DNA of 64,000 nt, taken from contig JACAFF010000003.1 of NCBI GenBank assembly GCA_013388455.1, positions 13,675 to 77,674 of the forward strand, written 5' to 3'. The translations under genes and the position numbers were made by a program. The DNA comes from Nitrospirota bacterium. Lineage in GTDB: Bacteria; Nitrospirota; Thermodesulfovibrionia; Thermodesulfovibrionales; SM23-35. Shown piece after piece: positions 18,933 through 32,740 of this stretch (positions are counted from its first letter, which is position 1; each line of letters starts with the position of its first letter). Under the pieces are notes generated by a model, which saw only the letters and a list, made by a program, of their open reading frames with translations, was not told where the DNA came from and ran no database searches.

Positions 18933-19625
18933 ATGAAGAAGTATTTATTGCTTATTCTTATCGTAGTTTTTGCGATAGGTATGTCTACTTTTGTAAGTGC
19001 GACGGTCTTTAATACACCGCACGAACTTGCACCTGAGCCATGTGCTATGTGTCATACACCTCATAGTGGAACAGGCCAATATCCATTATGGAATAGATTA
19101 CAAGTAGCACCTACTTATGAAACTTATGATTCGGTCTCATTCGACATGGGTCCTACTTTTCAACCAAGACCACCTTCTTCACTTTGTCTGGTATGCCACA
19201 ATGGGCTTGCAAGCTCACTTGTTAATTATCCAGGTCCTTGTTCTGTAACTGATGGAGCATATGATCTACAGATATCAGGATGTGCTGATTTAGATACGTG
19301 GCTTATGGATGACCATCCCATTAGTTTCAATTATGATGATACTTTAGATACTGCCACTGATGGAAATGGATTTCCACCTGCTACTGATGTGTCGGTTGGC
19401 ACTCGTGTCAGATATGCAATAGTCGGAGGATTAAGCGGAACTAATTATTTCCTGTATGCAGCTTCTGGCGCATCTGCTCCAACTGATAGATGGTTTGAAT
19501 GCGCAACGTGTCACTCAGTCCATGACCTTGCAACATATGATGGTAAAGGTGATTATCAGGTCTATTTCTTAAGGAACGACAATACACGTTCAACAATGTG
19601 CAAAGATTGTCATACATTAAGATAA
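18933..19625 (+). CDS. Secreted tetrahaem cytochrome c (doubled-CXXCH type), first gene of FDH operon
   Basis: Signal peptide MKKYLLLILIVVFAIGMSTFVSA. Four CXXCH motifs: CAMCHTPH, CLVCH, CATCHSVH, CKDCH. SD GGAGGTG 7 nt upstream. Paralogous to the 30210..30947 product. Confidence 0.85.
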   Translation: MKKYLLLILIVVFAIGMSTFVSATVFNTPHELAPEPCAMCHTPHSGTGQYPLWNRLQVAPTYETYDSVSFDMGPTFQPRPPSSLCLVCHNGLASSLVNYPGPCSVTDGAYDLQISGCADLDTWLMDDHPISFNYDDTLDTATDGNGFPPATDVSVGTRVRYAIVGGLSGTNYFLYAASGASAPTDRWFECATCHSVHDLATYDGKGDYQVYFLRNDNTRSTMCKDCHTLR

Positions 19626-19662
19626 TGTTTAGGATAAAGATCTATTATGAAAGGAGGGAGTA

Positions 19663-20367
19663 ATGGCTTATAAAAGAAAATGGATGATGTTTATAGATAC
19701 ATCCAAGTGCATAGGCTGTAAAGCCTGTCAGGTTGCATGCAAGCAATGGCACCAGCTGCCACCAGAGACTACTACTTTTATTGGTTCCTACACGAATCCC
19801 CCTGACGTATCAGGGACTACTTTTACACGTGTTGAATACACTGAATATGAAGACATAAGGAATACACTGTTTTTCTTGTTCTTTAAGAAACAGTGCATGC
19901 ATTGTAACCAGGCTGAATGCCAGATATTGTGCCCTAAAGGTGTAGAAAAAACCAAAGAGGGTTTTGTTATTTTCAATGATAAGTGTATACCTGCGAATGT
20001 AAAAGTAAGTGGTGATGAAGCTGCAAAAATAGCAGCATTTCTTGCATGTTGTCCATACGAAATCCCGAAATATAACTCAACACTTGGTAGGTTTGTAAAG
20101 TGTGACTTTTGCTTTGACAGGTTTGGTGGAGGATATGGAGTATATACAACTTACAGAGATGGTCAACCTACCACTGCATGTGAGTTGGCCTGCCCACCAG
20201 GTGCAATAAAAACTGGTGCTGCTAAAGATATCATGAACATGGCAAAGCAGAGACTCGCTGTAGTTAAAGACACATATGACAAAGCAACCCTTTGGGGGGG
20301 CAGAGGCCGCGTAATATTTCTTTTAACTCAACCTCGTGAAGCATATAATCTGCCACCTGCTGATTAA
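19663..20367 (+). CDS. fdhB: Formate dehydrogenase iron-sulfur subunit (FdhB/HybA-like, 4x[4Fe-4S]), no TM anchor
   Basis: CIGCKACQVACKQWH, CMHCNQAECQILCP, CDFC and CELACPPGA ferredoxin-type cluster motifs. No hydrophobic C-terminal helix. Strong SD GAAAGGAGGG. Confidence 0.85.
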   Translation: MAYKRKWMMFIDTSKCIGCKACQVACKQWHQLPPETTTFIGSYTNPPDVSGTTFTRVEYTEYEDIRNTLFFLFFKKQCMHCNQAECQILCPKGVEKTKEGFVIFNDKCIPANVKVSGDEAAKIAAFLACCPYEIPKYNSTLGRFVKCDFCFDRFGGGYGVYTTYRDGQPTTACELACPPGAIKTGAAKDIMNMAKQRLAVVKDTYDKATLWGGRGRVIFLLTQPREAYNLPPAD

Positions 20368-20378
20368 AAGGGAGGAAA

Positions 20379-20471
20379 ATGGACTTTAAAGCTTACTTTA
20401 AAAAAATTATGAACAAAAGAGCTTGTAACAAAAATTTGTTGAAAAGCTTAAAAATGAAAGGAGGGAATTAA
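20379..20471 (+). CDS. Candidate 30-codon small ORF between fdhB and fdhA (MDFKAYFKKIMNKRACNKNLLKSLKMKGGN)
   Basis: ATG 20379 preceded by AAGGGAGGAAA. Its stop TAA 20469-20471 overlaps the fdhA ATG (TAATG). No homology could be assessed. Confidence 0.25.
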   Translation: MDFKAYFKKIMNKRACNKNLLKSLKMKGGN

Positions 20472-23400
20472 TGGCTATTACCCGAAGAGATTTTTTGAAG
20501 TACACTGCTGTCACTGGCGCTGCCCTTTATCTTGGAATATTCGACCTCAAGCCTATTAAAGCTTATGCCCAAGCCAATCCGCCTGTATGGTTGTATGAAA
20601 ATTACAGCATATGTCCATATTGCGGCATGGGATGCGGAATGATTATTGGAAGCAATGAAGATGGCCAGATTACTTACGTCCAGGGTGACCCTGATAATCC
20701 AAATAACCACGGGTCTTTATGTTCCAAAGGTTCAAGTGCAGCTAACCTGAATCATATCGAAGGGTATGTCAGGCCTGGAGGGGTTCCATATCTGGATAAA
20801 TACGGAGTTCCTTACAAGGCTGATGACTCCGAGAGGATTATAACGCCGTTGAGGCGTTCTCCTGGAGAAAACAATTGGGAAGTGATAGACTGGGATACAG
20901 CTCTCACCGAGATAGTTAATAAGATAGTAACTACTCGTGGCACCATTTCTCCCGGAGGCATATGCACAAATATTGCCGTCCTGGGCACTGCCAAGGACAC
21001 TAATGAAGATTGCTATTTGTTGACTAAACTGATGAGGGCTCTCGGCATTGTTTATTTCGAGCACTGCGCCCGTCTCTGACACTCTCCAACCGTAGCGGCT
21101 CTGGGAGAGTCGTTTGGCAGAGGGTGTATGACAAATAGCTGGACAGATATTGAGAATGCAGACGTCGTATTGATTATGGGCTGCAATCCAGCAGAGAACC
21201 ACCCATTAGCGATGAAACATGTCTTAAAGGCAAAAGAAAAGGGTGCAACTATTATAAATGTTGACCCGAGATTTTGTAGAAGTTCTTCACAGGCAGATAT
21301 ATATGCACCAATGCGTTCTGGAACTGATATTGCCTTTATTGGTGGGATGATTAAATATGCTATAGACCATGGTCTTTACAATACGAAATATGTAAGAGAA
21401 TGCACGAATGCCCTACTTATGGTAAACAGTGGCTTTGAGACATGCGAAGAGGGTACCAAAGGTGTATTTTCCGGATTAACAACACCGGGTACTTATTATC
21501 CACATCTTGATGCTACTTTGGATGCTGCATATACCAAGACAACTTGGGACTATGATGCACCGTTAACTCCCACTGTGGCGGCAAATCTCACTGATTCTGG
21601 TACTGTTTTTGATAAACTCAAAAAACAGTTTGCCAACTACACAATCGAAAATGTATGTGCTATTACAGGCACACCAGAGGCACTGTATCAGGAGATTTGC
21701 GAGACATTTTGCTCAACATATCCTGACAACAAATCGGCAACCATTCTGTATGCTATGGGAACAACACAACATACTATTGGCTCACAGAACATCAGGGCAT
21801 ATTCAATATTACAGCTCCTCCTGGGAAACATGGGGGTTGCTGGTGGCGGTATTAACGCATTAAGAGGTCAGGTTAATGTTCAGGGTGCAACAGACCAGGC
21901 AGTGCTTCACCACATACTGCCCGGATATCTGAAAGTCCCTACACCTTCTCAGACTACATTGACTGATTATATGAATGCTAATTACAATTCAGCACATGCG
22001 GTTAATCCCGTTCACAATTATACTGTGAGGGGGACGTCAGGTGTAGACCCGATAAGTGTGCACTGGTGGAAGAACGGGAGAAAGTATATTGCTGCTCTGC
22101 TCAAGGCGTGGTGGCCGGGTGTAGACTGCGACACAGGATATTCTTATCTGCTCAAGAAGACGGGGGACCACAGCATCCTTACGATGTTCGATGAAATGTC
22201 TCAGGGACATATCGATGGCGCTATCTTCGTCGGAGAAAATCCTGCTGTGAGCGACCCTGACAGCGATCATGTGAGAGCGGCATTGGCAAATCTCGAATGG
22301 CTCGTCTGCGTAGACCCATTTGAAACAGAGACAGCGGCATTCTGGAGGTTGAATACTTTAGCAAATACAACCGTCTACCTTTTGCCTTGCGCAGTCGGCA
22401 TCGAAAAGTATGGCTCTTTCACCAATAGCAGCAGGTGGCTTCAGTGGTCATGGAGTGGAGGAAATCCACCGGGAGAAGCAAGAACAGACCTCGATATCCT
22501 TGTGGACTTAGGCACGAGGCTTAAAACTGCCTTTAGTGCAGAACCCCAGATGTCGAATCTCAACTGGCCGTGCTTTGGCTACACTGGACAAACAGGCGAT
22601 GCCCTGGCAGAACTCGTAGCAAAGGAGATGCATGGATATTTTTGGAATGGTTCGAGCTGGGTGTTACATAATGGAACCTTTTTGAATTTCCCGGATTACA
22701 CGGGGCCTGACTATCTTTATGCTTGCGGCAACTGGCTCCATTGCGGTTCTTTTGCTGTATCACTGGATGCGTTTGAAAGCCCAAATCAGGGCGCTATATG
22801 GCCAGCTGGTGGAGTCGGAAACAGGGCAAAGAGGAGATACCCAATTGATGTTGGTAATGCTGGTTGGACAGACCCCGGCAAGTTGTGCTCCAGCCTATAT
22901 TCCTATTGGTCGTGGTGCTGGCCTGTCAACAGGAGAATCGTTTATAACCGTGCGTCAATGTATCTTAGTGATAAAGATTTGACTACACTTGCAGGCGACC
23001 CGCTTGCTCCGCAAAAATATGTAGTCAAGTGGGACCCCGCTGCATCTACATTTAGAGGCGATGTAATAGACGGCGGCGGGAATCCGGGACCGGGAACATG
23101 GCCTTATCCTTTTATTATGCTAAAGGATGGTCACGGACACCTCTTTGGTGGATGGACTCTGTCAGATGGCCCATTCCCATGGCATTATGAGCCTGCTGAA
23201 AGCCCGATAGCTTATCCATCATGGCTTGGCACTTACAGGATGAACCCGACTGTTCATTTGTATGACCCTGGAAATGTTGCTACAAACTTCGCAGAGCATG
23301 GAGACGATGAATATAACATCTTTGCGACATCTTACAGAATAACCGAGCACTATCATACGGGGACTATGACGAGAAATATACCCATTCTGATTGAACTTCA

Positions 23401-23737
23401 ACCTGAGCCTTTTGTTGAGATAAGCGAAGAGCTTGCGGCTGATACCACCGGAACCCTCGTTAAAAATAGTGATACAAATGGACCCATCAGCAATGGAGAT
23501 GATGTGATAGTAACCTCAGCCAGAGGAAGTATTACAGTCAAAGCATGCGTCACTAAACGCTTCAAACCATTCAGGGTGAATGGCACAATAGTTCATCAGG
23601 TAGGTATCATCTGGCATTGGGGATTTATGGGTCTTAGTACTGGTGACAGCGGAAACATTCTGACACCTTATATCGGAGACGCCAATACGAGAATTCCGGA
23701 ATCTAAGTGCTTCAGGGTAAACATCGAGAAGGTATAA
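20471..23737 (+). CDS. fdhA: Periplasmic formate dehydrogenase catalytic subunit (Mo/W-bis-PGD), selenocysteine-containing, Tat-exported
   Basis: Track ORFs 20471..21079 and 21128..23737 are in the same frame (offset 657 nt). They are joined through TGA 21077-21079 in the context [27 protein letters not shown], the canonical FDH Sec/His active-site block. Twin-arginine signal MAITRRDFLKYTAV. N-terminal CPYCGMGCG FeS motif. Confidence 0.9.
21077..21110 (+). promoter_or_regulatory. UGA(Sec) codon plus SECIS-like hairpin
   Basis: TGA at 21077-21079. Stem ACTCTCC (21081-21087) pairs with GGAGAGT (21104-21110). The 16-nt apical region contains an inner CCG/CGG pair, at the position expected for a bacterial SECIS immediately 3' of the UGA. 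Confidence 0.7.
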
Positions 23738-23781
23738 TACATAGTGCATAGCGGATGAGATTATATCTACTCTAATTTTCA

Positions 23782-23811
23782 AGATTGCCCCGGCACAAAC
23801 CGGGGCAATCT
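23782..23811 (+). terminator. Perfect 12-bp GC-rich hairpin after fdhA (possible terminator or repeat-family member)
   Basis: AGATTGCCCCGG-cacaaa-CCGGGGCAATCT, 45 nt after the fdhA stop. No U-tract follows, and the arms contain the GATTGCC/GGCAATC repeat-family core. Confidence 0.4.
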
Positions 23812-23830
23812 ATTGATAGTTACCTTGTTT

Positions 23831-23914
23831 GTCATTGTAAGAAGTCCCGAAAGCTTTCAGGACGGCGAAGCAATCCTAAAAGGGGAGATTGCCATGCCTT
23901 CGGCTCGCAATGAC
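23831..23914. repeat. REP/MITE-like palindromic element with GTCATTG termini
   Basis: GTCATTGTAAGAAGTCCCGAAAGCTTTCAGGACGGCGAAGCAATCC ... GGAGATTGCCATGCCTTCGGCTCGCAATGAC. The 3' half is the reverse complement of the family consensus GTCATTGCGAGC...GGCAATCTCC. Confidence 0.75.
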
Positions 23915-23948
23915 GGAAAGAAGTAATTTTTTTAAAAAGGAATACATA

Positions 23949-24878
23949 ATGAAAAGAAAAAAACCTAATGAATTGGACAGGATCATCCATAGAATAGATG
24001 TCATTGAGAAAAATAGACCCAGTTATAAAGAAATACTCGAATTTTTTAAAGACATTGTAAAACAGCAGTATAAGATAAAATCACTTATTAATGTAGAAGC
24101 TGTTGACATAAATAGGGAAACAGTAAAAAAGCAGATGATGGAAGGATTTCCTTTGATAGATAAGAATGAGATAAAGCTGGATATGGACTCAGCTACAACC
24201 CTATTTAAGAAAATATGCAGGACTATCCAGAGAAAGAATAAAAAGATCGCTCCTGAAATAAAAAAGATAAATCAAGCCTTACGTCATAACAAAATAGAAG
24301 TGCAGGAGCTATTCAAAAAATTGCTTTCAGGCGATAAAGAATACTTTGATTCAATAGGCAAAAATAATGGTTCTTATTTTAATAAATGGCTGTTAATTTT
24401 TTTAGCACAAAACAGCATTAATCCTGTGCTTGAGGCATATGCTGATAGAATAAAAGGGTATGTGGAACAGGATTCATGGCGGAAAGGCTATTGTCCAGTA
24501 TGCGGTTCTGAGCCACTAATGGGAAAGATAAAAAATGTCGAGGGTGTTGAAGGAGCAAAGTTTCTTATCTGTTCTTCCTGTGGCTTTGAGTGGCGATTTG
24601 ATAGGATATTATGTCCATTCTGCGGCAACGGAGACCATAAAAAACTGAGGCATTTTTATATTGAGAAAGAAGGTAAGGGTTACAGGGTGGATGTCTGCGA
24701 TATATGTAAAAAATACATCAAAACTATAGATTTAAGAGAACTAAAAATAGATGTTATCCCCCATGTTGAAGATATCGGAACTATTCATCTTGATATCATT
24801 GCTCAGAACGAAGGGTATAAAAGGGATATTCTAAATATTTTAGATATGGAAAAAATGGGGTCGGATGCCGAGGTATAG
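23949..24878 (+). CDS. fdhE: Formate dehydrogenase accessory protein FdhE
   Basis: Four Cys pairs CPVCGS...CSSCGFEW...CPFCGN...CDICKKYIKTID in FdhE rubredoxin-like spacing. I place the start at ATG 23949 (MKRKKPNEL). The track's TTG 23889 extension (MPCLRLAMTE) is translation of the repeat element. Confidence 0.85.
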   Translation: MKRKKPNELDRIIHRIDVIEKNRPSYKEILEFFKDIVKQQYKIKSLINVEAVDINRETVKKQMMEGFPLIDKNEIKLDMDSATTLFKKICRTIQRKNKKIAPEIKKINQALRHNKIEVQELFKKLLSGDKEYFDSIGKNNGSYFNKWLLIFLAQNSINPVLEAYADRIKGYVEQDSWRKGYCPVCGSEPLMGKIKNVEGVEGAKFLICSSCGFEWRFDRILCPFCGNGDHKKLRHFYIEKEGKGYRVDVCDICKKYIKTIDLRELKIDVIPHVEDIGTIHLDIIAQNEGYKRDILNILDMEKMGSDAEV

Positions 24879-24919: not shown

Positions 24920-25138
24920 ATGACACTTAGAGAACTGAAGCTGTATGCAAAAACAAAGGGATTAAAGATTCTTAATATGAAAAGGGAGAACATCATTCGA
25001 GCAATCCAGAGCCTTGAAGGAAATACTCCTTGTTTTGGAACATCTAAAGTAAAAAATTGTGACCAGAAAAACTGCTTATGGCTTCAGGAATGTTTGTATT
25101 ACTACAATAGGCTTAACCTTGCAGATAATGAACAATAA
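24920..25138 (+). CDS. Small Rho_N/SAP-like protein with C-terminal 4-Cys motif
   Basis: MTLRELKLYAKTKGLKILNMKRENIIRAIQ resembles the Rho N-terminal/SAP helix-extended-helix. It is followed by CFGTSKVKNCDQKNCLWLQEC. Confidence 0.55.
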   Translation: MTLRELKLYAKTKGLKILNMKRENIIRAIQSLEGNTPCFGTSKVKNCDQKNCLWLQECLYYYNRLNLADNEQ

Positions 25139-25370: not shown

Positions 25371-26252
25371 TTGAATTTTATAAAAATAAAATACTCGCTT
25401 CCCCGATTAAGTCGAGGAATAACAAAAAAGAGTATATTTTTTTTCTCTAACAGCTTTACCAGAGATTTTACATTATTCCTATGTTTAATTGTTTGCTTTT
25501 TAATCCTCACCTTAAGCTTATTAACTTTTGACTCTTACTCTGCTGAAGAAAACACCTGTTTAGCATGTCATATAGATCTGAAAAAGCCTAAAAAAAGTAT
25601 TCATGTAGTATTAGATAAGGGCTGCTCAACATGTCATAAGACTGTTGAAGGAAAAACTCATCCTGACCAGAAAGGCAGTATTATACTCACACAGAAAGTA
25701 CCTGCTCTTTGTTATATTTGCCATGATATATCGAAATTCAAAGGCACATCAGGCCATGCCCTATTAGGTATGTGCACAGGCTGTCATAATCCACACAGCT
25801 CTGATTCAGATAAACTTTTAAAAAACGACCAGCCCAATCTTTGCTATGAATGCCATGAAAAAACAAAATTTACAAAAAAATATGTTCACGCAATAATAAA
25901 TCTTGGAGGATGCACATCTTGCCATGCAGCACATACTTCTGAATATCCATCCCTTCTACTAAATTCGACACATAAATTGTGTATAAGCTGCCATGCTAAT
26001 AAACTGAAATTACCACATGTTGTTTCCCTGCCCGGTAAAAAACGTCATCCGATTGATGGAGTAATAGATCCAAGTACCATCAAGTTGATAAAAGTTGAAG
26101 ACCCAAAAAATCCAAAAAGACAGATAGAGATTCCAGACCCTAATGTTCCAGGAAAAGAGATGACCTGTGCAAGTTGCCATGAACCACATAGTTCTGATTT
26201 CAGGTCACTTCTAACCCAAGAAAGGATATGTATTAAATGCCACAAACTTTAA
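25371..26252 (+). CDS. Secreted nonahaem cytochrome c
   Basis: Nine CXXCH motifs: CLACH, CSTCH, CYICH, CTGCH, CYECH, CTSCH, CISCH, CASCH, CIKCH. N-terminal hydrophobic segment FTLFLCLIVCFLILTLSLLTF. TTG start, exact start uncertain. Confidence 0.85.
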   Translation: MNFIKIKYSLPRLSRGITKKSIFFFSNSFTRDFTLFLCLIVCFLILTLSLLTFDSYSAEENTCLACHIDLKKPKKSIHVVLDKGCSTCHKTVEGKTHPDQKGSIILTQKVPALCYICHDISKFKGTSGHALLGMCTGCHNPHSSDSDKLLKNDQPNLCYECHEKTKFTKKYVHAIINLGGCTSCHAAHTSEYPSLLLNSTHKLCISCHANKLKLPHVVSLPGKKRHPIDGVIDPSTIKLIKVEDPKNPKRQIEIPDPNVPGKEMTCASCHEPHSSDFRSLLTQERICIKCHKL

Positions 26253-27271
26253 TGCGAATACCTTACTTTACTCACTATTTACTATCCACTATTTTGCTAT
26301 TACTTTTTGCATGTACCCCAAAAACACCCTTACTCGAAAAACCTAAAGGTGAATACATCTGGCCTCCACCTCCACAAACTCCGCGCATTCAATGGGTGAC
26401 ACAATGGTCAAATTCACAGGACTTTAAAATGATAAACCCTCTTGATGTACTTATAAGAGAAGCTGTGCTTCATGTTTTATTCAGGCCAAATGGGGTCGTA
26501 GTTGATAACGCAGGTAATATTTATGTTGCTGATTCACAGCTTCATAAAATTTTTGTCTTTGACATGGAAAAATTTACTTTGCGTTTTCTCGGCGAAGGTA
26601 TACTTGATGCCCCAATATGTCTTGCTATAGACAATAAAAGAGGAATTTTGTTTGTTTCAGATTCAAAACTTAACAGTGTATTTGGACTGAATAAAAATAC
26701 AGGACAGGTAGTTATGTCACCTGTTCCAACAGGAGAATTTAAAAATCCATCTGGATTGGTTTATGACGAAGAAAGAGAGAGACTATATGTTTCAGACAGT
26801 AAAAATCATATTATAAGGGTCTTTGATAAAGATGGGTTGCCTCTGTTTACATTTGGTAAAAAAGGAACTGAAGATGGTGAATTTCATACTCCAAGCTATC
26901 TGGCTCTTGATAAAAATGGCCGAATTTATGTTGTTGACTTATTTAATTTCAGGATACAGATATTCACTCCTGATGGAAAGTTCATTAGAAAATTCGGGAG
27001 ACTTGGTGATTGTCGTGGCTGCTTCACAAGGCCAGCAGGTATTGGCCTGGATTCAGAAGGACACATATATGTGGTTGATACTGCATTCAACAATTTCCAG
27101 ATTTTTACTGACGAAGGAAAGCTTTTACTCGATATTGGCAAGGCTGGAATAGGAGCAGGTCAATTTTCACTTCCAACAGGATTATATATTGATAAAAAAG
27201 ACAGAATTTATGTAACTGATACTTTTAACAGAAGGATACAGGTTTTTCAATATTTGAAAGAAAAAAAATGA
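26252..27271 (+). CDS. NHL-repeat six-bladed beta-propeller lipoprotein (paralogue 1)
   Basis: Lipobox LLLFAC. Repeated NHL-like blades (P.G...D..G.IYV.D..N..I..F). ATG 26252 shares one nt with the upstream stop (TAATG); the track's alternative start is 26237. Motif WPPPPQTPRIQW is shared with paralogue 2. Confidence 0.85.
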   Translation: MRIPYFTHYLLSTILLLLFACTPKTPLLEKPKGEYIWPPPPQTPRIQWVTQWSNSQDFKMINPLDVLIREAVLHVLFRPNGVVVDNAGNIYVADSQLHKIFVFDMEKFTLRFLGEGILDAPICLAIDNKRGILFVSDSKLNSVFGLNKNTGQVVMSPVPTGEFKNPSGLVYDEERERLYVSDSKNHIIRVFDKDGLPLFTFGKKGTEDGEFHTPSYLALDKNGRIYVVDLFNFRIQIFTPDGKFIRKFGRLGDCRGCFTRPAGIGLDSEGHIYVVDTAFNNFQIFTDEGKLLLDIGKAGIGAGQFSLPTGLYIDKKDRIYVTDTFNRRIQVFQYLKEKK

Positions 27272-27344
27272 GGATGTCTAAGCCTTGAAGGAAAAAATTC
27301 ATTGAGTCAGAAAAAAAGAATTATCTTTTTTTTAACTATATTTC

Positions 27345-27354
27345 TTTTTTTTTT
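27345..27354 (+). repeat. T10 homopolymer separating the signal-peptide reading frame from the body of the barrel gene
   Basis: Counted directly: c27344, then T x10 (27345-27354), then a27355. See the finding on the frameshift. Confidence 0.9.
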
Positions 27355-27387
27355 ATAGCTCTCTTATTTGAAAAATCTGAAGCACAG

Positions 27388-29169
27388 ATGTCAAATGCTG
27401 CGTATGCATACCCCAAAAGGTTCCGTTTTACGGGTCTTATAGAACTTACATACCGCGATTATAGCTTTGCATCAAGTTATTATGGACATGGTACAGACAC
27501 CAGCTATACGAGCTTCGAGCAACGCTATATGTTAGGGCTAAGGGGGTATATATATCATCCCAAACTTGTATCTTTTTACGCAAGCTTAACTTACAGAAAA
27601 GAAATAGCAGATGATGGTTCAGATAACAACCGTGATTTAGATACTATAAATTATAATTTTTCAGCCAATATTCTACGAACTAATCCTATATCTTTAGATT
27701 TATACGCCCTAAAAACTGACTCTACTATAGAAGGATGGGGCACATCTCCTTACAATATCACCACAAGTTTTTTTGGGGCGAGACTACGTTTTACAAGAAG
27801 AAATTTTCCTTCTATAGTAATTGGATATGATCACTGGGAATATACTATTGAGAGAGAACATGGCTTTTTAATCAATAAATATGGATTTGGGGAGCTTATT
27901 ATCGAAAAAAAGATTAAGGAAGAAAATACCGAGAATACCAGATTTAATATAAATATAAATGGTTTTTTAAAGACTATAAATACAAGATATAATATTATTG
28001 GAGATTTATCAGAGTATTCAAGTCCTTTTAGAGAATATGATGGAAAAAATATAATAGCCAATACATATACTAATATAAAAAACCAAAATTCACTGTCTAC
28101 TTCTTTTCAACACTCTGACATAGATATAAAAAAACTGACAATGTTTACAGCAGATTTAAGATTATCCCCTATCGGCAAGTTAAATCATAACTATGGATAT
28201 GAATACCTTACTTTCGAAACCGAAGATGAGAAAGCAGATTTACAAACGGTCAGTAGTTATTTACTCTACAGACTATCTAAAATGATATTCGGAACAGCGA
28301 ACTTACGTTACAGTTTCGGGAATCGTAACGAAAGAAACGAAGAATCATATGGGGTTAACATTGGACTAAATTATGGCAAGCTTATTAAAAATTTTGATTT
28401 TACGTCATATTATAAGTTCTCTATTAAAACAGATGAAAGCCGTGGAGAATATAAATTTGTTGGGAATTCTCTGGGCATTGGTCTCTCTACAAGAAAATTC
28501 AAGCTTGGGAAAATTTATGCAAATTATGATATCTCAACAAGCAAATATGATTATAATTATACATTAAAGGAAAGTGAATATTACTATTCGGAATTTGAAG
28601 AATTTGGCAAATTATCAGCCGAAGGTGATTACATAGAGCATAGAGTCAGAACAGGAATAAATGGCAAAGGACCAAGGAGGGCATACTGGAATATTGAGGC
28701 TGAAGCGAGAATTTTCGACGCTAATACAAAAAATCACGGAACTACATTCTGGATTGGAGAAGAACAATGGGCTGAGAAAATAAGGCATTATACTTTAACA
28801 GGAGATATAGGCTATCCTATCGGACAAAAAGGATTGGCCACATTGAAGGGAAGTTATACTACAGGAGAAACTAACTCTGAAAATATCGAAAGTTATTATT
28901 ATGAAGTCCGTCTTAATTATCGTATACTCAGGAACCTCAATTTTTTAGGATGGTGGAGAGAAGATTGGCGAAATCAAGGATGGTGGGCAGGATCAACTGT
29001 TGATTTCCAGAGAAAATATGGATGGAAGAACAGGGAATATCAACTTGAACTACGTTATTTAATAAGAAGTATAACTCTCTCTCTTGAGTATAATGTATAC
29101 AGGTTAGAGGAAGGTCCATTAGTTTCAGAATATAAAAGGTTTTATGTAAAACTGAGCAAACCATTTTAA
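27388..29169 (+). CDS. Putative outer-membrane beta-barrel protein (~600 aa); 5' end probably at TTG 27302 via +1 T in the T10 tract
   Basis: Rich in Tyr/Asn/Gly/Trp. Many alternating-hydrophobic stretches (e.g. YQLELRYLIRSITLSLEYNVYRL). C-terminal RFYVKLSKPF ends in Phe, as in the OMP beta-signal. The ATG 27388 ORF lacks a signal peptide, which is encoded upstream in another frame. Confidence 0.7.
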   Translation: MSNAAYAYPKRFRFTGLIELTYRDYSFASSYYGHGTDTSYTSFEQRYMLGLRGYIYHPKLVSFYASLTYRKEIADDGSDNNRDLDTINYNFSANILRTNPISLDLYALKTDSTIEGWGTSPYNITTSFFGARLRFTRRNFPSIVIGYDHWEYTIEREHGFLINKYGFGELIIEKKIKEENTENTRFNININGFLKTINTRYNIIGDLSEYSSPFREYDGKNIIANTYTNIKNQNSLSTSFQHSDIDIKKLTMFTADLRLSPIGKLNHNYGYEYLTFETEDEKADLQTVSSYLLYRLSKMIFGTANLRYSFGNRNERNEESYGVNIGLNYGKLIKNFDFTSYYKFSIKTDESRGEYKFVGNSLGIGLSTRKFKLGKIYANYDISTSKYDYNYTLKESEYYYSEFEEFGKLSAEGDYIEHRVRTGINGKGPRRAYWNIEAEARIFDANTKNHGTTFWIGEEQWAEKIRHYTLTGDIGYPIGQKGLATLKGSYTTGETNSENIESYYYEVRLNYRILRNLNFLGWWREDWRNQGWWAGSTVDFQRKYGWKNREYQLELRYLIRSITLSLEYNVYRLEEGPLVSEYKRFYVKLSKPF

Positions 29170-29171
29170 AA

Positions 29172-30206
29172 ATGAATAAGAAATACCTCATATTTTTTAT
29201 TATTCTATTTCTTTTTGCCGGATGTGCTACATCGGAAGTTGCAATTCAAGATTCTGAATTAGATATACGAGGACCGAATCCTGTCTGGCCTCCGCCTCCC
29301 CAGACAGCGAGGGTTCAATATATAAGAAGCATTTCCGGACAATCTGATATAAAAAAAAAGAAGTCTTGGTTTATTAAAACAATGGATAGTATTCTCGGGA
29401 AAGGTCAAACATCAGGAAATTTACTCAGACCATATGGAGTATTCGCAGATGCTGATAAAATTTATGTAACAGATCCTGGAACTCATTTTCTTCATATCTT
29501 TGACATAAAAGAAAAAAGATATCTTGAAATTAGAAACGCTGACAGAAAGGATTTAATATCGCCTATCGGTGTAGCAGTTGACAAAAATGGAGAAATATAT
29601 CTCTCTGATTCCATATTAAAGAGAGTTTTCCACTTCGATAAGGATGGTAAATATATCAGGGAAATCGGATCAGATGATTTATTTATCAGGCCTGCAGGTA
29701 TTGCAATTGATGAAGAAAGACTTTATGTTATAGATACACACAAGCATAATGTTTTAGTTTTTTCAAAAAAAGATGGATCATTACTTTTTAACTTTGGTAA
29801 AAAAGGTAACGGAAAAGGAGAATTCAATTATCCTACTAATATATTTATTGCAAAAGATAACTTGCTTTATATATCTGATTCAATGAATTTCAGGGTTCAA
29901 ATCTTTGATAAGAACGGCAAATTTATCTCAACTTTTGGTAAACATGGTGATGGTTCAGGTGATTTCTCTAAATCCAAAGGCATAGCTGTTGATTCAGATG
30001 GACATATTTATGTTGCTGACGCACATTTTGATACTGTCCAGATATTCGATAAGGATGGCAGGCTACTTCTTGCCTTTGGTAACACAGGCCGTAAAAAAGG
30101 ACAAATGATCCTTCCGGCAGGTTTATTTATTGATGAACAGGACAGAATTTATGTTGCAGATTCAAATAATAACAGGATACAGATATTTCAGTATCTGAAA
30201 AAGTAA
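29172..30206 (+). CDS. NHL-repeat six-bladed beta-propeller lipoprotein (paralogue 2)
   Basis: Lipobox LFAGC. WPPPPQTARVQY motif. NHL blades (GEFNYPTNIFI..DNLLYISDSMNFRVQIFD etc.). Exactly 344 aa in the track, the same as paralogue 1. Confidence 0.85.
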   Translation: MNKKYLIFFIILFLFAGCATSEVAIQDSELDIRGPNPVWPPPPQTARVQYIRSISGQSDIKKKKSWFIKTMDSILGKGQTSGNLLRPYGVFADADKIYVTDPGTHFLHIFDIKEKRYLEIRNADRKDLISPIGVAVDKNGEIYLSDSILKRVFHFDKDGKYIREIGSDDLFIRPAGIAIDEERLYVIDTHKHNVLVFSKKDGSLLFNFGKKGNGKGEFNYPTNIFIAKDNLLYISDSMNFRVQIFDKNGKFISTFGKHGDGSGDFSKSKGIAVDSDGHIYVADAHFDTVQIFDKDGRLLLAFGNTGRKKGQMILPAGLFIDEQDRIYVADSNNNRIQIFQYLKK

Positions 30207-30209
30207 ACA

Positions 30210-30947
30210 ATGAGAAGTAAAATAAAATTAATATCTTGCGTTCTATATTTCACATTTTGTATTTTATTTTTAAATCCCTTTTTAGTTTTAGCACGTGTTG
30301 AAGATACTAAACATAATTTGTCTGTTTCAGGTACAGGGGATGTGAAAGCAGTTAGTGAAACCCAAATTTGTATATTCTGCCATACCCCTCATAATGCCTC
30401 ACCTGCAAAACCTCTCTGGAATCATGAGATAACGGCGGTTGTAAATTATATAAATTACTGGAGTCCCACTTTGCAATCTTACTCTTCTGAGGCAGAAGCA
30501 CCACCTATTGATGGATTCTCAAAACTCTGCTTAAGTTGCCATGATGGAACTGTAGCAATAGGTTCAATTATAAGCAGATGGGATGAGATTCAGATGATAA
30601 GCATTACAGATGTTCTTGATGCTTCAGGAAGACTCATTAGAGGGCCTGGGTACCTCGGGACAGATCTTTCAGGAGGGCATCCTATATCCATTATATTTGA
30701 CGAAATACTGGCTAATAAAAGAAATACCTCAGACCCTCCTTTAAGCCGTCTTAAATGGCCTATAAACGATCCTTATGTAAAACTTCATCCTACTCAGAAT
30801 GGATACGGAGTGCAGTGCACATCATGCCATGATCCACATACAAACAGAGCAGCAGGTGGTTGGCCCCCATTCTGGAATAAAACAACGCATGATGAAGTAT
30901 GCATTGTATGTCACGAAGAGATACCACCAGGGGATATAGAATGGTAA
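30210..30947 (+). CDS. Secreted tetrahaem cytochrome c (doubled-CXXCH type), paralogue of the FDH-linked cytochrome
   Basis: Signal peptide. Four CXXCH motifs: CIFCHTPH, CLSCH, CTSCHDPH, CIVCH. Shares TKHNL...C..CHTPH....PLWN, LCL.CH.G and GHPIS blocks with the 18933..19625 product. Confidence 0.85.
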   Translation: MRSKIKLISCVLYFTFCILFLNPFLVLARVEDTKHNLSVSGTGDVKAVSETQICIFCHTPHNASPAKPLWNHEITAVVNYINYWSPTLQSYSSEAEAPPIDGFSKLCLSCHDGTVAIGSIISRWDEIQMISITDVLDASGRLIRGPGYLGTDLSGGHPISIIFDEILANKRNTSDPPLSRLKWPINDPYVKLHPTQNGYGVQCTSCHDPHTNRAAGGWPPFWNKTTHDEVCIVCHEEIPPGDIEW

Positions 30948-32062
30948 AGAAAAAAGTTTTTATTATGAATATCGTTATCCTTTTTCTTATCTCCTCTTCT
31001 CTTAATGCTAACTCCGGGATTAAAAGGCCGCATGGTGATGAGAGTAAACTTCTCAAGGGGTGTGCAAGTTGTCATAAAGGTCATGGAATATATAATACAC
31101 CCATGCTTTCGGTTAGAAAAGAATTATTTTGCTTTAAATGCCATGGACATAGTATTTATGTAGAAAATGCTAAAAGATCTGGAGACATTGCTAATGACGT
31201 CAAAACAGAGGATATACAGAAAGAATTTGAAAAACCTTACCATCACCCTATTGAAAAAACAGGTATTCATAGATATGATGAAATAATTCCAGAAGTAGAT
31301 GGAGCTATGCCGAGACATTCAGACTGTGTTGATTGCCACCATCATCACTATGTAAAAAAGGAAAACAAGATGTCAGGTATCAGGGGTATAAATAAAGATG
31401 GAGTTAAGGTGAGGATAACTTCTGAGTATGAACTCTGCTTTAAGTGTCATTCTTATAGCGCTAATCTCCCTTCAAACCAAACCAATAAAGCAGAAATCCT
31501 TAATCCATCAAATCCTTCTTTTCATCCGATTATAGCGCCTGGAACTAACACTGATGTGCCAAGTCTTATCCCTCCTCTATCTACATCGAGCCTTATTAAA
31601 TGCACTGACTGTCATAACAATGATGAACCTTCAGGTCCAAAAGGGCCTCATGGTTCTATTTATAAATATATTTTATCCAAGAATTATACGACTATTGATA
31701 GTTCAGAAGGTCCATTTCAATATGAACTCTGTTACAGTTGTCACAGAAGGAGTAGTATTTTAAGTAATGAAAGTTTTCAGTTACATAATCTTCATATATC
31801 GAATGTGGGCACTTCCTGCAGGACGTGTCATAACCCTCATGGGAGTATACAATATACACATCTGATAGATTTTAATAGGGCAACTGTTATGCCATCAAAA
31901 AGTATGCAACTTGAATACAGAGATTTAGGTATTAGAGCCGGCCAATGTTTTCTAAACTGTCACGGACATGAACATGACCCGGCTGTCTATCCCTCAGCAA
32001 TATCAGGGACCATTTTACACAAACCTTCTTTTCAACCTAAACGATTTCCTTCACGTCGTTAA
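30941..32062 (+). CDS. Secreted octahaem cytochrome c (7 CXXCH + 1 CXXXCH)
   Basis: From ATG 30941 (MVKKKVFIMNIVILFLISSSLNA signal peptide; ATGGTAA overlap with the upstream stop). Motifs CASCH, CFKCH, CVDCH, CFKCH, CTDCH, CYSCH, CRTCH, plus CFLNCH. Confidence 0.85.
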   Translation: MVKKKVFIMNIVILFLISSSLNANSGIKRPHGDESKLLKGCASCHKGHGIYNTPMLSVRKELFCFKCHGHSIYVENAKRSGDIANDVKTEDIQKEFEKPYHHPIEKTGIHRYDEIIPEVDGAMPRHSDCVDCHHHHYVKKENKMSGIRGINKDGVKVRITSEYELCFKCHSYSANLPSNQTNKAEILNPSNPSFHPIIAPGTNTDVPSLIPPLSTSSLIKCTDCHNNDEPSGPKGPHGSIYKYILSKNYTTIDSSEGPFQYELCYSCHRRSSILSNESFQLHNLHISNVGTSCRTCHNPHGSIQYTHLIDFNRATVMPSKSMQLEYRDLGIRAGQCFLNCHGHEHDPAVYPSAISGTILHKPSFQPKRFPSRR

Positions 32063-32077
32063 ACCAAAATTGCAATG

Positions 32078-32736
32078 TTATTTTAGCACTGCCTTTTTAA
32101 ATTCCTCTACTCCAATTCGTTCAATAAATCTTGGCATCCTTTCTCTTGTTTTCGCATTCTTCGAATAGTAATCAAGACATCTCTCTATTAACTTAAATGC
32201 CTCTTCATCATTTAGTTTTTCTGCTATTATATTACCAATTCGTGGTCTCCCGCCTGAATTCCCTCCAACTACTACTGTCCAGCCATCAGGTGCTGCAAAG
32301 GCACCAAAATCTCTCAGAAAACTCTCTGCACAATTAAGCCTGCATCCTGAAATGCCGAATTTTGTTTTTGCAGGAACGGTCTGTTCCTTTCCAACATACA
32401 TTTTTTCTATTTTTGCAGCAAGTCCAAGTGAATTACCCTGCCCGAATTTACATGTTTCTGTTCCTGGACATGCCTGAACATAATGGACACATAATCCCTC
32501 AGCAGGTCCTATTGCCATATCCAGATCATTCCATACCTGTTCAACCTCTTCTGGTTTCATACCGACCAGTGCAATACGCTGACCGGATGTTATTTTAATT
32601 ATTTTAATTTTATATTTGCGTGCAACCATCGCAAGCTTTTCAAGAATTTCAGGTGTCAATACACCCATCGGTATTCTGGGAACAATGGCATATGTCTGTT
32701 TATCCCTCTGAAGAATGGCCCCTCTTGGTTCCTTGC

Positions 32737-32740
<4 letters not shown>
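32078..32740 (-). CDS. Small (220 aa) siroheme/[4Fe-4S] nitrite-sulfite reductase-family protein (low-molecular-weight assimilatory-type sulfite reductase-like)
   Basis: CPGTETCKFG ... GCRLNCAES gives the CX5C...CX3C siroheme-FeS ligand pattern. The size and N-terminus (GAILQRDKQTYAIVPRIPMG) resemble the ~23 kDa Desulfovibrio alSiR class, from memory. Confidence 0.7.

Follow-up and report, generated by a model that had tools for sequence, protein, structure and literature searches.

The question raised by this locus is what purpose is served by six co-directional genes that encode three secreted multihaem cytochromes, two propeller lipoproteins and a large β-barrel side by side. The genes lie at positions 25371–32062 of the + strand in a stretch of 64,000 nucleotides (nt) from contig JACAFF010000003.1, which is referred to here, at its whole length, as the window, and which comes from a Thermodesulfovibrionia-like Nitrospirota metagenome-assembled genome (MAG). 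The original prediction took them for an outer-membrane electron-transfer module of uncharacterised architecture. The general idea of such a module was upheld. The uncharacterised architecture was not, as the 4-haem protein of the cluster is an OmcE homologue and the same six-gene set appears in a 2025 preprint (bioRxiv 10.1101/2025.10.22.684050). We consider it likely that the six genes represent a compact OmcE-type cytochrome nanowire module. By analogy with the omcE clusters, it would most likely comprise a wire subunit, a large outer-membrane barrel, two propeller lipoproteins and two feeder cytochromes.

The decisive component is the 4-haem protein (30210–30947, + strand; 245 amino acids, aa), an OmcE-family tetrahaem cytochrome and putative nanowire subunit, which had earlier been counted as just one cytochrome among several. 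A phmmer search against all PDB sequences matched only two entries: 7tfs_A, the OmcE filament of Geobacter sulfurreducens (E 3.5e-24, residues 26–236 against 22–231 of 232), and 9yuq_N, a ‘putative multiheme cytochrome c’ (E 1.3e-15). The protein was aligned with Nitrospirota homologues and Geobacter-type OmcE proteins, including G. sulfurreducens OmcE, in sets of 19 and 80 sequences. In both alignments the four CXXCH motifs were invariant (C54/C57/H58, C107/C110/H111, C203/C206/H207 and C231/C234/H235), as were four additional histidines, H35 (TKHNLS), H61 (CHTPHN), H157 (GGHP) and H210 (CHDPH). Four CXXCH motifs with four further histidines, which give complete bis-histidine ligation, are the features by which the literature describes OmcE homologues, and in the OmcE filament the coordination of one haem is completed by a histidine from the next subunit. 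An AlphaFold2 (AF2) model of the protein (predicted local distance difference test, pLDDT, 74.8) had a single fold match in the PDB, again 7TFS (E 2.7e-9, template-modelling (TM) scores 0.50/0.59), a match of moderate quality because the model was built without haems. Judged by sequence, the 245-aa protein is homologous over its full length to OmcE of Geobacter, whose extracellular filament has been solved. It is probably exported by Sec with cleavage between VLA and RVEDTKHNLS, in parallel with the Geobacter N-terminus. The string LISC at residues 7–10 was considered as a lipobox and rejected, since the cysteine falls at residue 10 and the preceding h-region is too short; direct reading of the translations gave no convincing lipobox in any of the cluster cytochromes.

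The remaining genes were compared with the omcE locus of Geobacter, which was fetched via the OmcE cluster representative. That locus reads purHDE, a small c7 cytochrome, resB, ccsB, a 370-aa cytochrome, a 330-aa cytochrome, a 361-aa NHL protein, OmcE, a 752-aa protein without a Pfam family and glycosyltransferases. Two genes of the cluster, at 26252–27271 and 29172–30206 (both + strand), encode 344-aa six-bladed NHL β-propellers (Pfam PF01436, E 7e-35 and 1e-31, respectively), and lipoboxes were read from their translations (LLFAC in the first, LFAGC in the second). Both the propeller assignment and the lipid anchors bore out what had been expected of these proteins. The two are 42% identical to each other, and each aligned over its full length with the Geobacter NHL protein, the N-terminal WPPxPxxPRIxW included (36% identity, E 6e-61, for the first; 37%, E 5e-65, for the second). 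A crude pattern search found a lipobox in 92 of 133 relatives. These results bear on the proposal, made earlier as an alternative, that the cluster encodes a periplasmic oxidoreductase complex for metals, metalloids or sulfur compounds. The many haems and the propellers are all that speaks for it, given that NHL/SGL-type propellers can be enzymes. The propellers here are orthologous to those of the omcE clusters, and a barrel of the outer membrane is a conserved part of the module. Pfam and NCBIfam searches of the cluster returned no molybdopterin, Fe-S, copper or other catalytic subunit, and because such a subunit is absent we regard this alternative as unsupported and highly improbable.

The two other cytochromes are encoded at the two ends of the cluster. 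The first gene (25371–26252, + strand) encodes a secreted, MtrA/DmsE-like protein of 293 aa with nine CXXCH motifs, which matched Pfam Paired_CXXCH_1 (E 2e-37) and scored 87 bits against the DmsE family TIGR03508, for which the cut-off is 192 bits. Its closest PDB sequence was 6r2q_A (E 5.9e-11, over part of the protein). We take this chain to be MtrA of the MtrCAB complex, the molecule label given to it in the PDB presumably being wrong; in this entry, chain C carries an OmcA/MtrC family label. The 9-haem protein thus appears related to the MtrA/DmsE decahaem cytochromes by sequence without being a member of that group; it has nine haems and not ten. It is probably a periplasmic feeder that touches or enters the barrel. 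Its counterpart in Geobacter is the 330-aa cytochrome (27% identity, E 3e-25). The last gene (30941–32062, + strand; longest open reading frame, ORF, from 30899) encodes a secreted cytochrome of 373 or 387 aa, in which counting of motifs gave seven CXXCH and one C-terminal CXXXCH. It matched the Geobacter 370-aa cytochrome (E 6e-11), and the match included the unusual C-terminal CXXXCH (CFLNCH versus CVVGCH). Altogether, sequence comparison demonstrated homology to the Geobacter omcE locus for five of the six components.

The sixth component is the barrel (27302–29169, + strand; assembled ORF 27388–29169), a 593-aa protein as assembled. No Pfam or NCBIfam family matched it, and no PDB sequence relative was found at E ≤ 10, even with a profile of the family. 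An AF2 model built on a 28-sequence alignment (mean pLDDT 85.5, predicted TM score 0.68) demonstrated a barrel fold of 28 β-strands, so that the barrel expected from the translation was borne out by prediction. Foldseek of this model against the PDB found nothing closer than generic large barrels of the outer membrane, namely TonB-dependent receptors, LptD and ushers, all with TM below 0.37, and MtrB was not among the best 50 matches. The C-terminus reads ...KLSKPF, and a terminal ...RPF or KPF is conserved among the homologues. The protein is 100% identical to one from a ‘Nitrospirae bacterium’ MAG (locus tag HXY53_01045), and all of its close homologues come from Nitrospirae or Thermodesulfovibrionales MAGs and metagenomes, within a family of 770 cluster representatives at E ≤ 1e-3. 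The barrels of Desulfuromonadia are longer, at ~750 aa (L003 10863–13121, L089 11017–13266 and L090 13765–15987 among the loci retrieved). When the window barrel family was compared with the barrels of these three loci by hhalign, probabilities were 2–10% and not significant, and phmmer with the Geobacter barrel against all proteins fetched gave no match. The sole match to the ~750-aa barrels was an N-terminal hairpin motif, sGxxELxYxxY...SFxQRYxL (E ~3e-6, three sequences, with a locally iterated profile). As judged from these comparisons, the ~600-aa window barrel and the ~750-aa Desulfuromonadia barrels appear to belong to separate sequence families.

A 28-strand barrel is roomy enough to hold a cytochrome, and UetC of the uet cluster described below has been modelled likewise. 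Together with the MtrA-like best PDB relative of the 9-haem protein (6r2q_A) and its partial DmsE-family match, this is consistent with a conduit of the Mtr or porin-cytochrome (Pcc) type that has no filament, in which the 9-haem protein sits inside the barrel and passes electrons on to the tetrahaem protein, the 8-haem protein or both as monomeric surface cytochromes, and the propellers only stabilise the complex. NHL propellers have been proposed as stabilisers of outer-membrane cytochrome complexes (Deng et al.). This is essentially the model put forward in the original prediction. It is countered by the tetrahaem protein, which retains all eight axial histidines, one of which ligates the neighbouring subunit's haem in the OmcE filament, and by Geobacter and Desulfuromonas, where the same accessory set stands beside a subunit whose filament has been established by structure. 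Nor did the cluster contain a Pfam match to the MtrB/PioB barrels or a lipoprotein cytochrome of the MtrC/OmcA type. We therefore judge a conduit without a filament unlikely, and favour the nanowire module.

The barrel gene also carries a defect as assembled. Its ORF begins at 27388, where the frame has its first start codon, and includes no signal peptide. The frame that starts with the TTG at 27302 encodes one (27302–27355) and stops at TAG 27356–27358, just after a run of ten T residues (T10, 27345–27354). Insertion of one T restores MSQKKRIIFFLTIFLFFFIALLFEKSEA ahead of the cleavage site and QMSNAAYAY behind it, agreeing with the ...PEKPEAQM... signal peptides of homologues; the repaired peptide, with ...FLFFFIALLFEKSEA preceding the cleavage site and QMSNAAYAY following it, is co-linear with ...LLLPEKPEAQM... 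in those proteins. Many barrel homologues in the databases are annotated from a methionine right after the cleavage site. The T10 frameshift could be a homopolymer error, phase variation or the mark of a pseudogene, and it qualifies any assumption that the module functions in this genome. If real, it would strip the barrel of its signal peptide and keep it from the outer membrane, leaving the module inactive as a pseudogene or in a phase-variable OFF state. The stop in the TTG frame, the lack of a barrel start before 27388 and the intact signal peptides of the homologues agree with this. The rest of the barrel ORF and the five neighbouring genes are intact, one added T restores the frame, and a single homopolymer-length error in the MAG assembly explains the observation equally well, so we consider an inactive module improbable here.

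The layout of the genes was confirmed by direct reading, including the six co-directional ORFs in the ORF list of the window, the tight junctions noted earlier and the total of 21 haem sites (nine CXXCH in the 293-aa protein, four in the 245-aa protein, and seven CXXCH with one CXXXCH in the 373/387-aa protein). Read base by base, the stop codon of gene 1 (TAA 26250–26252) overlaps the start of gene 2 (ATG 26252–26254) as TAATG; an alternative in-frame ATG for this first NHL lipoprotein lies at 26237. The barrel gene ends with TAA 29167–29169, 2 nt (29170–29171) ahead of the ATG at 29172 of the second NHL gene, which in turn ends with TAA 30204–30206, 3 nt (30207–30209) before the tetrahaem ATG at 30210. 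The tetrahaem and 8-haem genes overlap by ATGGTAA at 30941–30947. With the barrel signal peptide repaired, all junctions in the cluster are therefore 30 nt or shorter. A promoter and terminator scan found sites no more frequent than in shuffled sequence and was uninformative on co-transcription. The 3′ end of the operon is marked by a convergent gene on the − strand (32078–32740), 15 nt past the cluster, whose product is a small 4Fe-4S protein resembling nitrite/sulfite reductases (Pfam NIR_SIR, E 9e-25).

The arrangement is conserved. Two other Nitrospirota genomes, whose barrels are 41% and 36% identical to that of the window, keep the order cytochrome, NHL, barrel, NHL, tetrahaem and 7–8-haem cytochrome. 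Because this order is kept where the barrels are only 36–41% identical, the six-gene arrangement is not due to chance. At L001, L002, L004, L005, L006, L027, L042 and L049, which are loci from Nitrospirota and Brocadiia, the OmcE-like gene is followed by a 7-haem gene of ~360–390 aa. The tetrahaem family as a whole comprised at least 5218 proteins at E ≤ 1e-5 in a word-indexed search, and a scan of genomes (one per species) with the tetrahaem alignment returned at least 596 loci. We surveyed the neighbourhoods of 84 sources, namely the best 80 of the at least 596 loci, L001–L003 and the window, by calling ORFs and searching them with profiles of the window barrel family (iterated on its 770 representatives), the NHL proteins and the OmcE alignment. 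The barrel family co-occurred with NHL and OmcE-like genes in 57 of the 84 loci. At least two NHL genes were present in 49 of the 57 loci with a barrel-family ORF, and the loci lacking such an ORF were mostly short or truncated contigs. In nearly all 84, the gene immediately preceding the OmcE-like one encoded an NHL protein. The order NHL, (small cytochrome), barrel, NHL, OmcE-like was kept across phyla, in Planctomycetota (including Brocadiia and Phycisphaerae), Verrucomicrobiota, Acidobacteriota, Myxococcota, Bacteroidota, Ignavibacteria, Chlorobiota, Ca. Binatia, Gammaproteobacteria and Nitrospirota. OmcE homologues with a porin gene nearby have been reported from five phyla, Nitrospirota among them (bioRxiv 10.1101/2025.10.22.684050), and the NHL/barrel/NHL/OmcE-like neighbourhood found here spans many more than these five. 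A search of the literature on OmcE in Nitrospirota or Thermodesulfovibrio gave nothing specific other than the same preprint.

The two relatives with 41% and 36% barrel identity also carry two extra 12-haem cytochromes upstream of the cluster. Such haem-dense proteins (12 CXXCH in ~280–305 aa), one or two per cluster, were seen upstream at L001 5813–7566, L002 5876–7635, L005 2690–4600 and L004 ~12130; none is encoded in the 64-kb window.

Upstream of the cluster in the window lies the operon of a periplasmic formate dehydrogenase (FDH) (18933–24878), which encodes a tetrahaem protein, an Fe-S subunit, a Tat-exported molybdopterin subunit and FdhE. The tetrahaem gene at its head (18933–19625, + strand) is included here for context only. 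Its product is itself of the OmcE family (7tfs_A, E 1.3e-14), has all eight axial histidines kept in the alignment, and is 27% identical to the cluster tetrahaem (E 1e-10), which confirmed the paralogy proposed for the two. The catalytic subunit is split into ORFs 20471–21079 and 21128–23737 by an in-frame TGA at 21077–21079 (EHCARL*HSPTV), probably a selenocysteine codon. Between fdhE and the 9-haem gene is a 72-aa cysteine-rich ORF (24920–25138; MTLRELKLYAKTKGLKILNMKRENIIRAIQSLEGNTPCFG...) with no Pfam match. Among metagenomic relatives of the FDH-linked tetrahaem protein, those with 75% identity (L084 and L085) were encoded upstream of FdhB, and those with 62–65% identity (L086 and L088) directly upstream of the small and large subunits of a NiFe hydrogenase. 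The OmcE fold appears, then, to serve in this lineage as a dedicated partner of periplasmic FDH or hydrogenase.

From the adjacency of the FDH operon, a route from formate through a cytochrome chain to an external acceptor had been proposed. As a conserved feature of the module, this adjacency was rejected, there being no FDH beside the cluster in the relatives L001, L002, L004 and L005. Since the gene order is kept in genomes lacking the FDH, the six genes are the conserved unit and the FDH neighbourhood lies outside it. What remained plausible was a more general link to periplasmic H2 or formate oxidation, because a NiFe(Se) hydrogenase large-subunit gene stands immediately upstream of the homologous cluster in two Nitrospirota relatives (L001 1–238 and L005 459–1943). 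Overall, a periplasmic enzyme that oxidises H2 or formate precedes the wire module in three of the five closest loci. A donor-to-wire route from FDH or hydrogenase to the OmcE-type wire is therefore suggestive, and circumstantial. More tentatively, Thermodesulfovibrionia may have recruited the OmcE fold twice, as a dedicated periplasmic acceptor for FDH and NiFe(Se) hydrogenases and as an extracellular wire, and hard-wired both into a single route from H2 or formate to an external acceptor or partner cell; we regard this as rather unlikely. If true, a lineage regarded as sulfate-reducing would be capable of extracellular electron transfer with H2 or formate as the fuel.

Sequence does not reveal which way the electrons flow, and the wire could also run inward, as proposed for the Uet system, so that a sulfate or sulfur reducer would draw electrons into its periplasm from minerals, Fe(0), cathodes or a syntrophic partner. 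A gammaproteobacterial locus with the Uet layout was found in the survey (L072 933–12337), comprising an OmcE-like tetrahaem, a SurA-like peptidyl-prolyl isomerase (PPIase), a barrel, c7-type cytochromes, NHL proteins and an 838-aa multihaem cytochrome. Its tetrahaem matched the OmcE profile and its barrel the window-barrel profile (3e-10). Because the tetrahaem, the barrel and the NHL proteins of L072 each have homologues in the window, clusters of the Uet and OmcE types share three homologous parts. Electron uptake is the role proposed for the Uet-like loci of Ca. Tenderia and Gallionella, and NHL-linked cytochromes of Desulfovibrio ferrophilus are induced during electron uptake, both of which favour an inward wire. 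The electron-donating enzymes adjoining the module (FDH here, hydrogenase in L001 and L005) suit export better, and the PPIase, trihaem c7 and cupredoxin of Uet were not found among the genes by Pfam. On balance, inward flow seems to us rather unlikely.

For the nanowire module, we infer polymerisation, an export or anchor role for the barrel and propellers, a direction of electron flow and a coupling to the neighbouring FDH along the following lines. All six products would be exported by Sec, and the cytochromes would receive their haems in the periplasm. The matured tetrahaem protein would be passed to a platform in the outer membrane, formed by the 28-strand barrel and the two lipid-anchored NHL propellers flanking it, that would serve export of the subunits, mounting of the filament or both. 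Outside the cell it would polymerise head to tail, by analogy with OmcE of Geobacter and Desulfuromonas, with one histidine ligating the haem of the neighbouring subunit, so as to give a continuous extracellular haem chain. The MtrA-like 9-haem and the 8-haem cytochromes may link periplasmic donors to the base of the wire.

Several observations weigh against the nanowire interpretation. The tetrahaem protein shares ~31% identity with Geobacter OmcE and has a lineage-specific insertion (NRAAGGWPPFW) as well as an extended C-terminus (EEIPPGDIEW), and polymerisation has been demonstrated for just two OmcE proteins, both from Desulfuromonadia. At least 5218 proteins and at least 596 genomic loci fall within the OmcE family, a very large one that also takes in the FDH- or hydrogenase-attached paralogue, which may well be monomeric. 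The frameshift deprives the assembled barrel gene of its signal peptide, and apart from the N-terminal hairpin motif the barrel has no detectable homology to the ~750-aa barrel of Desulfuromonadia. Its proposed role in secretion or anchoring, shared with the propellers, is still labelled speculative in the literature (bioRxiv 10.1101/2025.10.22.684050).

One of the known systems to which the cluster can be compared is that of D. ferrophilus, in which cytochromes are co-encoded and co-expressed with NHL proteins (DFE_0448–0451 and DFE_0461–0465) and an outer-membrane cytochrome complex has been proposed (PMC5815863, PMC9769857). Both place multihaem cytochromes beside NHL β-propeller proteins, there in a sulfate reducer, but no porin gene is reported in D. 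ferrophilus and the likeness we draw is one of gene content. MtrCAB of Shewanella and the Pcc/Ext clusters of Geobacter likewise co-encode an MtrA-like periplasmic multihaem cytochrome and a large outer-membrane barrel, and trans-outer-membrane electron transfer is expected of all of them. In contrast to these, the barrel here is not of the MtrB/PioB family and is predicted to have 28 strands versus 26, and propeller lipoproteins and an OmcE-type subunit take the place of the external lipoprotein decahaem. No lipoprotein cytochrome of the MtrC/OmcA or OmcB/ExtC type was found among the six genes, where all Pfam matches to MtrC domains fell below threshold.

The osc cluster, as far as it is described in PMC13194489 (after Shen et al. 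2025), serves the filament cytochrome OmcS with factors for folding (OscH), secretion (OscE/F/G) and morphology (OscD), and OscE/F/G are reportedly required for the secretion of OmcS. The resemblance, so far as these accounts go (PMC13194489, bioRxiv 10.1101/2025.10.22.684050), lies in a filament cytochrome accompanied by accessory proteins that are proposed to fold it, secrete it and mount it on a porin-like outer-membrane protein. In osc, as described there, the wire is built from the hexahaem OmcS, a protein with no sequence relationship to OmcE, and no hexahaem ORF lies within the 64-kb window.

Ca. Tenderia electrophaga and Gallionella have the uet (undecahaem electron transfer) cluster, which encodes a tetrahaem, a barrel predicted to have 28 strands, two NHL proteins and further cytochromes (bioRxiv 10.1101/2022.05.06.490989; PMC10734462). 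The tetrahaem (UetA), the predicted 28-strand barrel (UetC) and the two NHL proteins (UetH/I) all have their likeness here. Unlike uet, neither the six genes nor the window includes a PPIase (UetB), trihaem c7 (UetD/E/G), cupredoxin (UetF) or undecahaem (UetJ), all of which L072 has, and Uet is proposed for electron uptake. Through L072, the homologies described above link the uet and omcE clusters as apparent variants of one module.

The closest system is the omcE cluster of G. sulfurreducens and, in its minimal form, of Desulfuromonas, Geoalkalibacter and Geothermobacter. The smallest of these clusters always consist of two multihaem cytochromes, two β-propeller lipoproteins, OmcE and a large β-barrel, the last regarded as a putative secretion pore or anchor (bioRxiv 10.1101/2025.10.22.684050). 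The six-gene composition is the same here, with a tetrahaem protein holding eight axial histidines, two homologous cytochromes, NHL lipoproteins 36–37% identical to the Geobacter protein and a large β-barrel that has no Pfam family in either case. The differences are in the order of the genes (multihaem cytochrome, NHL, barrel, NHL, OmcE, multihaem cytochrome here; in Desulfuromonadia two multihaem cytochromes, NHL, OmcE, (NHL), barrel), in the barrel, which at ~600 aa appears to belong to another sequence family than the ~750-aa barrel of Desulfuromonadia, with the N-terminal motif in common, in the lineage-specific insertion and C-terminal tail of the tetrahaem protein, and in the absence of adjacent resB/ccsB or glycosylation genes. 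As the preprint reports this minimal set, and the uet and osc clusters have been named as well, the architecture has already been described, as the minimal omcE cluster, and is no novel electron-transfer machine. Its occurrence here adds a low-GC (guanine plus cytosine) Nitrospirota to the bacteria with a complete and compact module of the cytochrome-nanowire type, and further supports OmcE-type wires as widespread beyond Geobacter. The six-gene version lacks glycosylation and cytochrome-maturation genes, which makes it convenient as a minimal set to reconstitute in a heterologous host and well suited to testing the roles of the barrel and the two propellers, a question that the omcE clusters have in common with all cytochrome nanowires.

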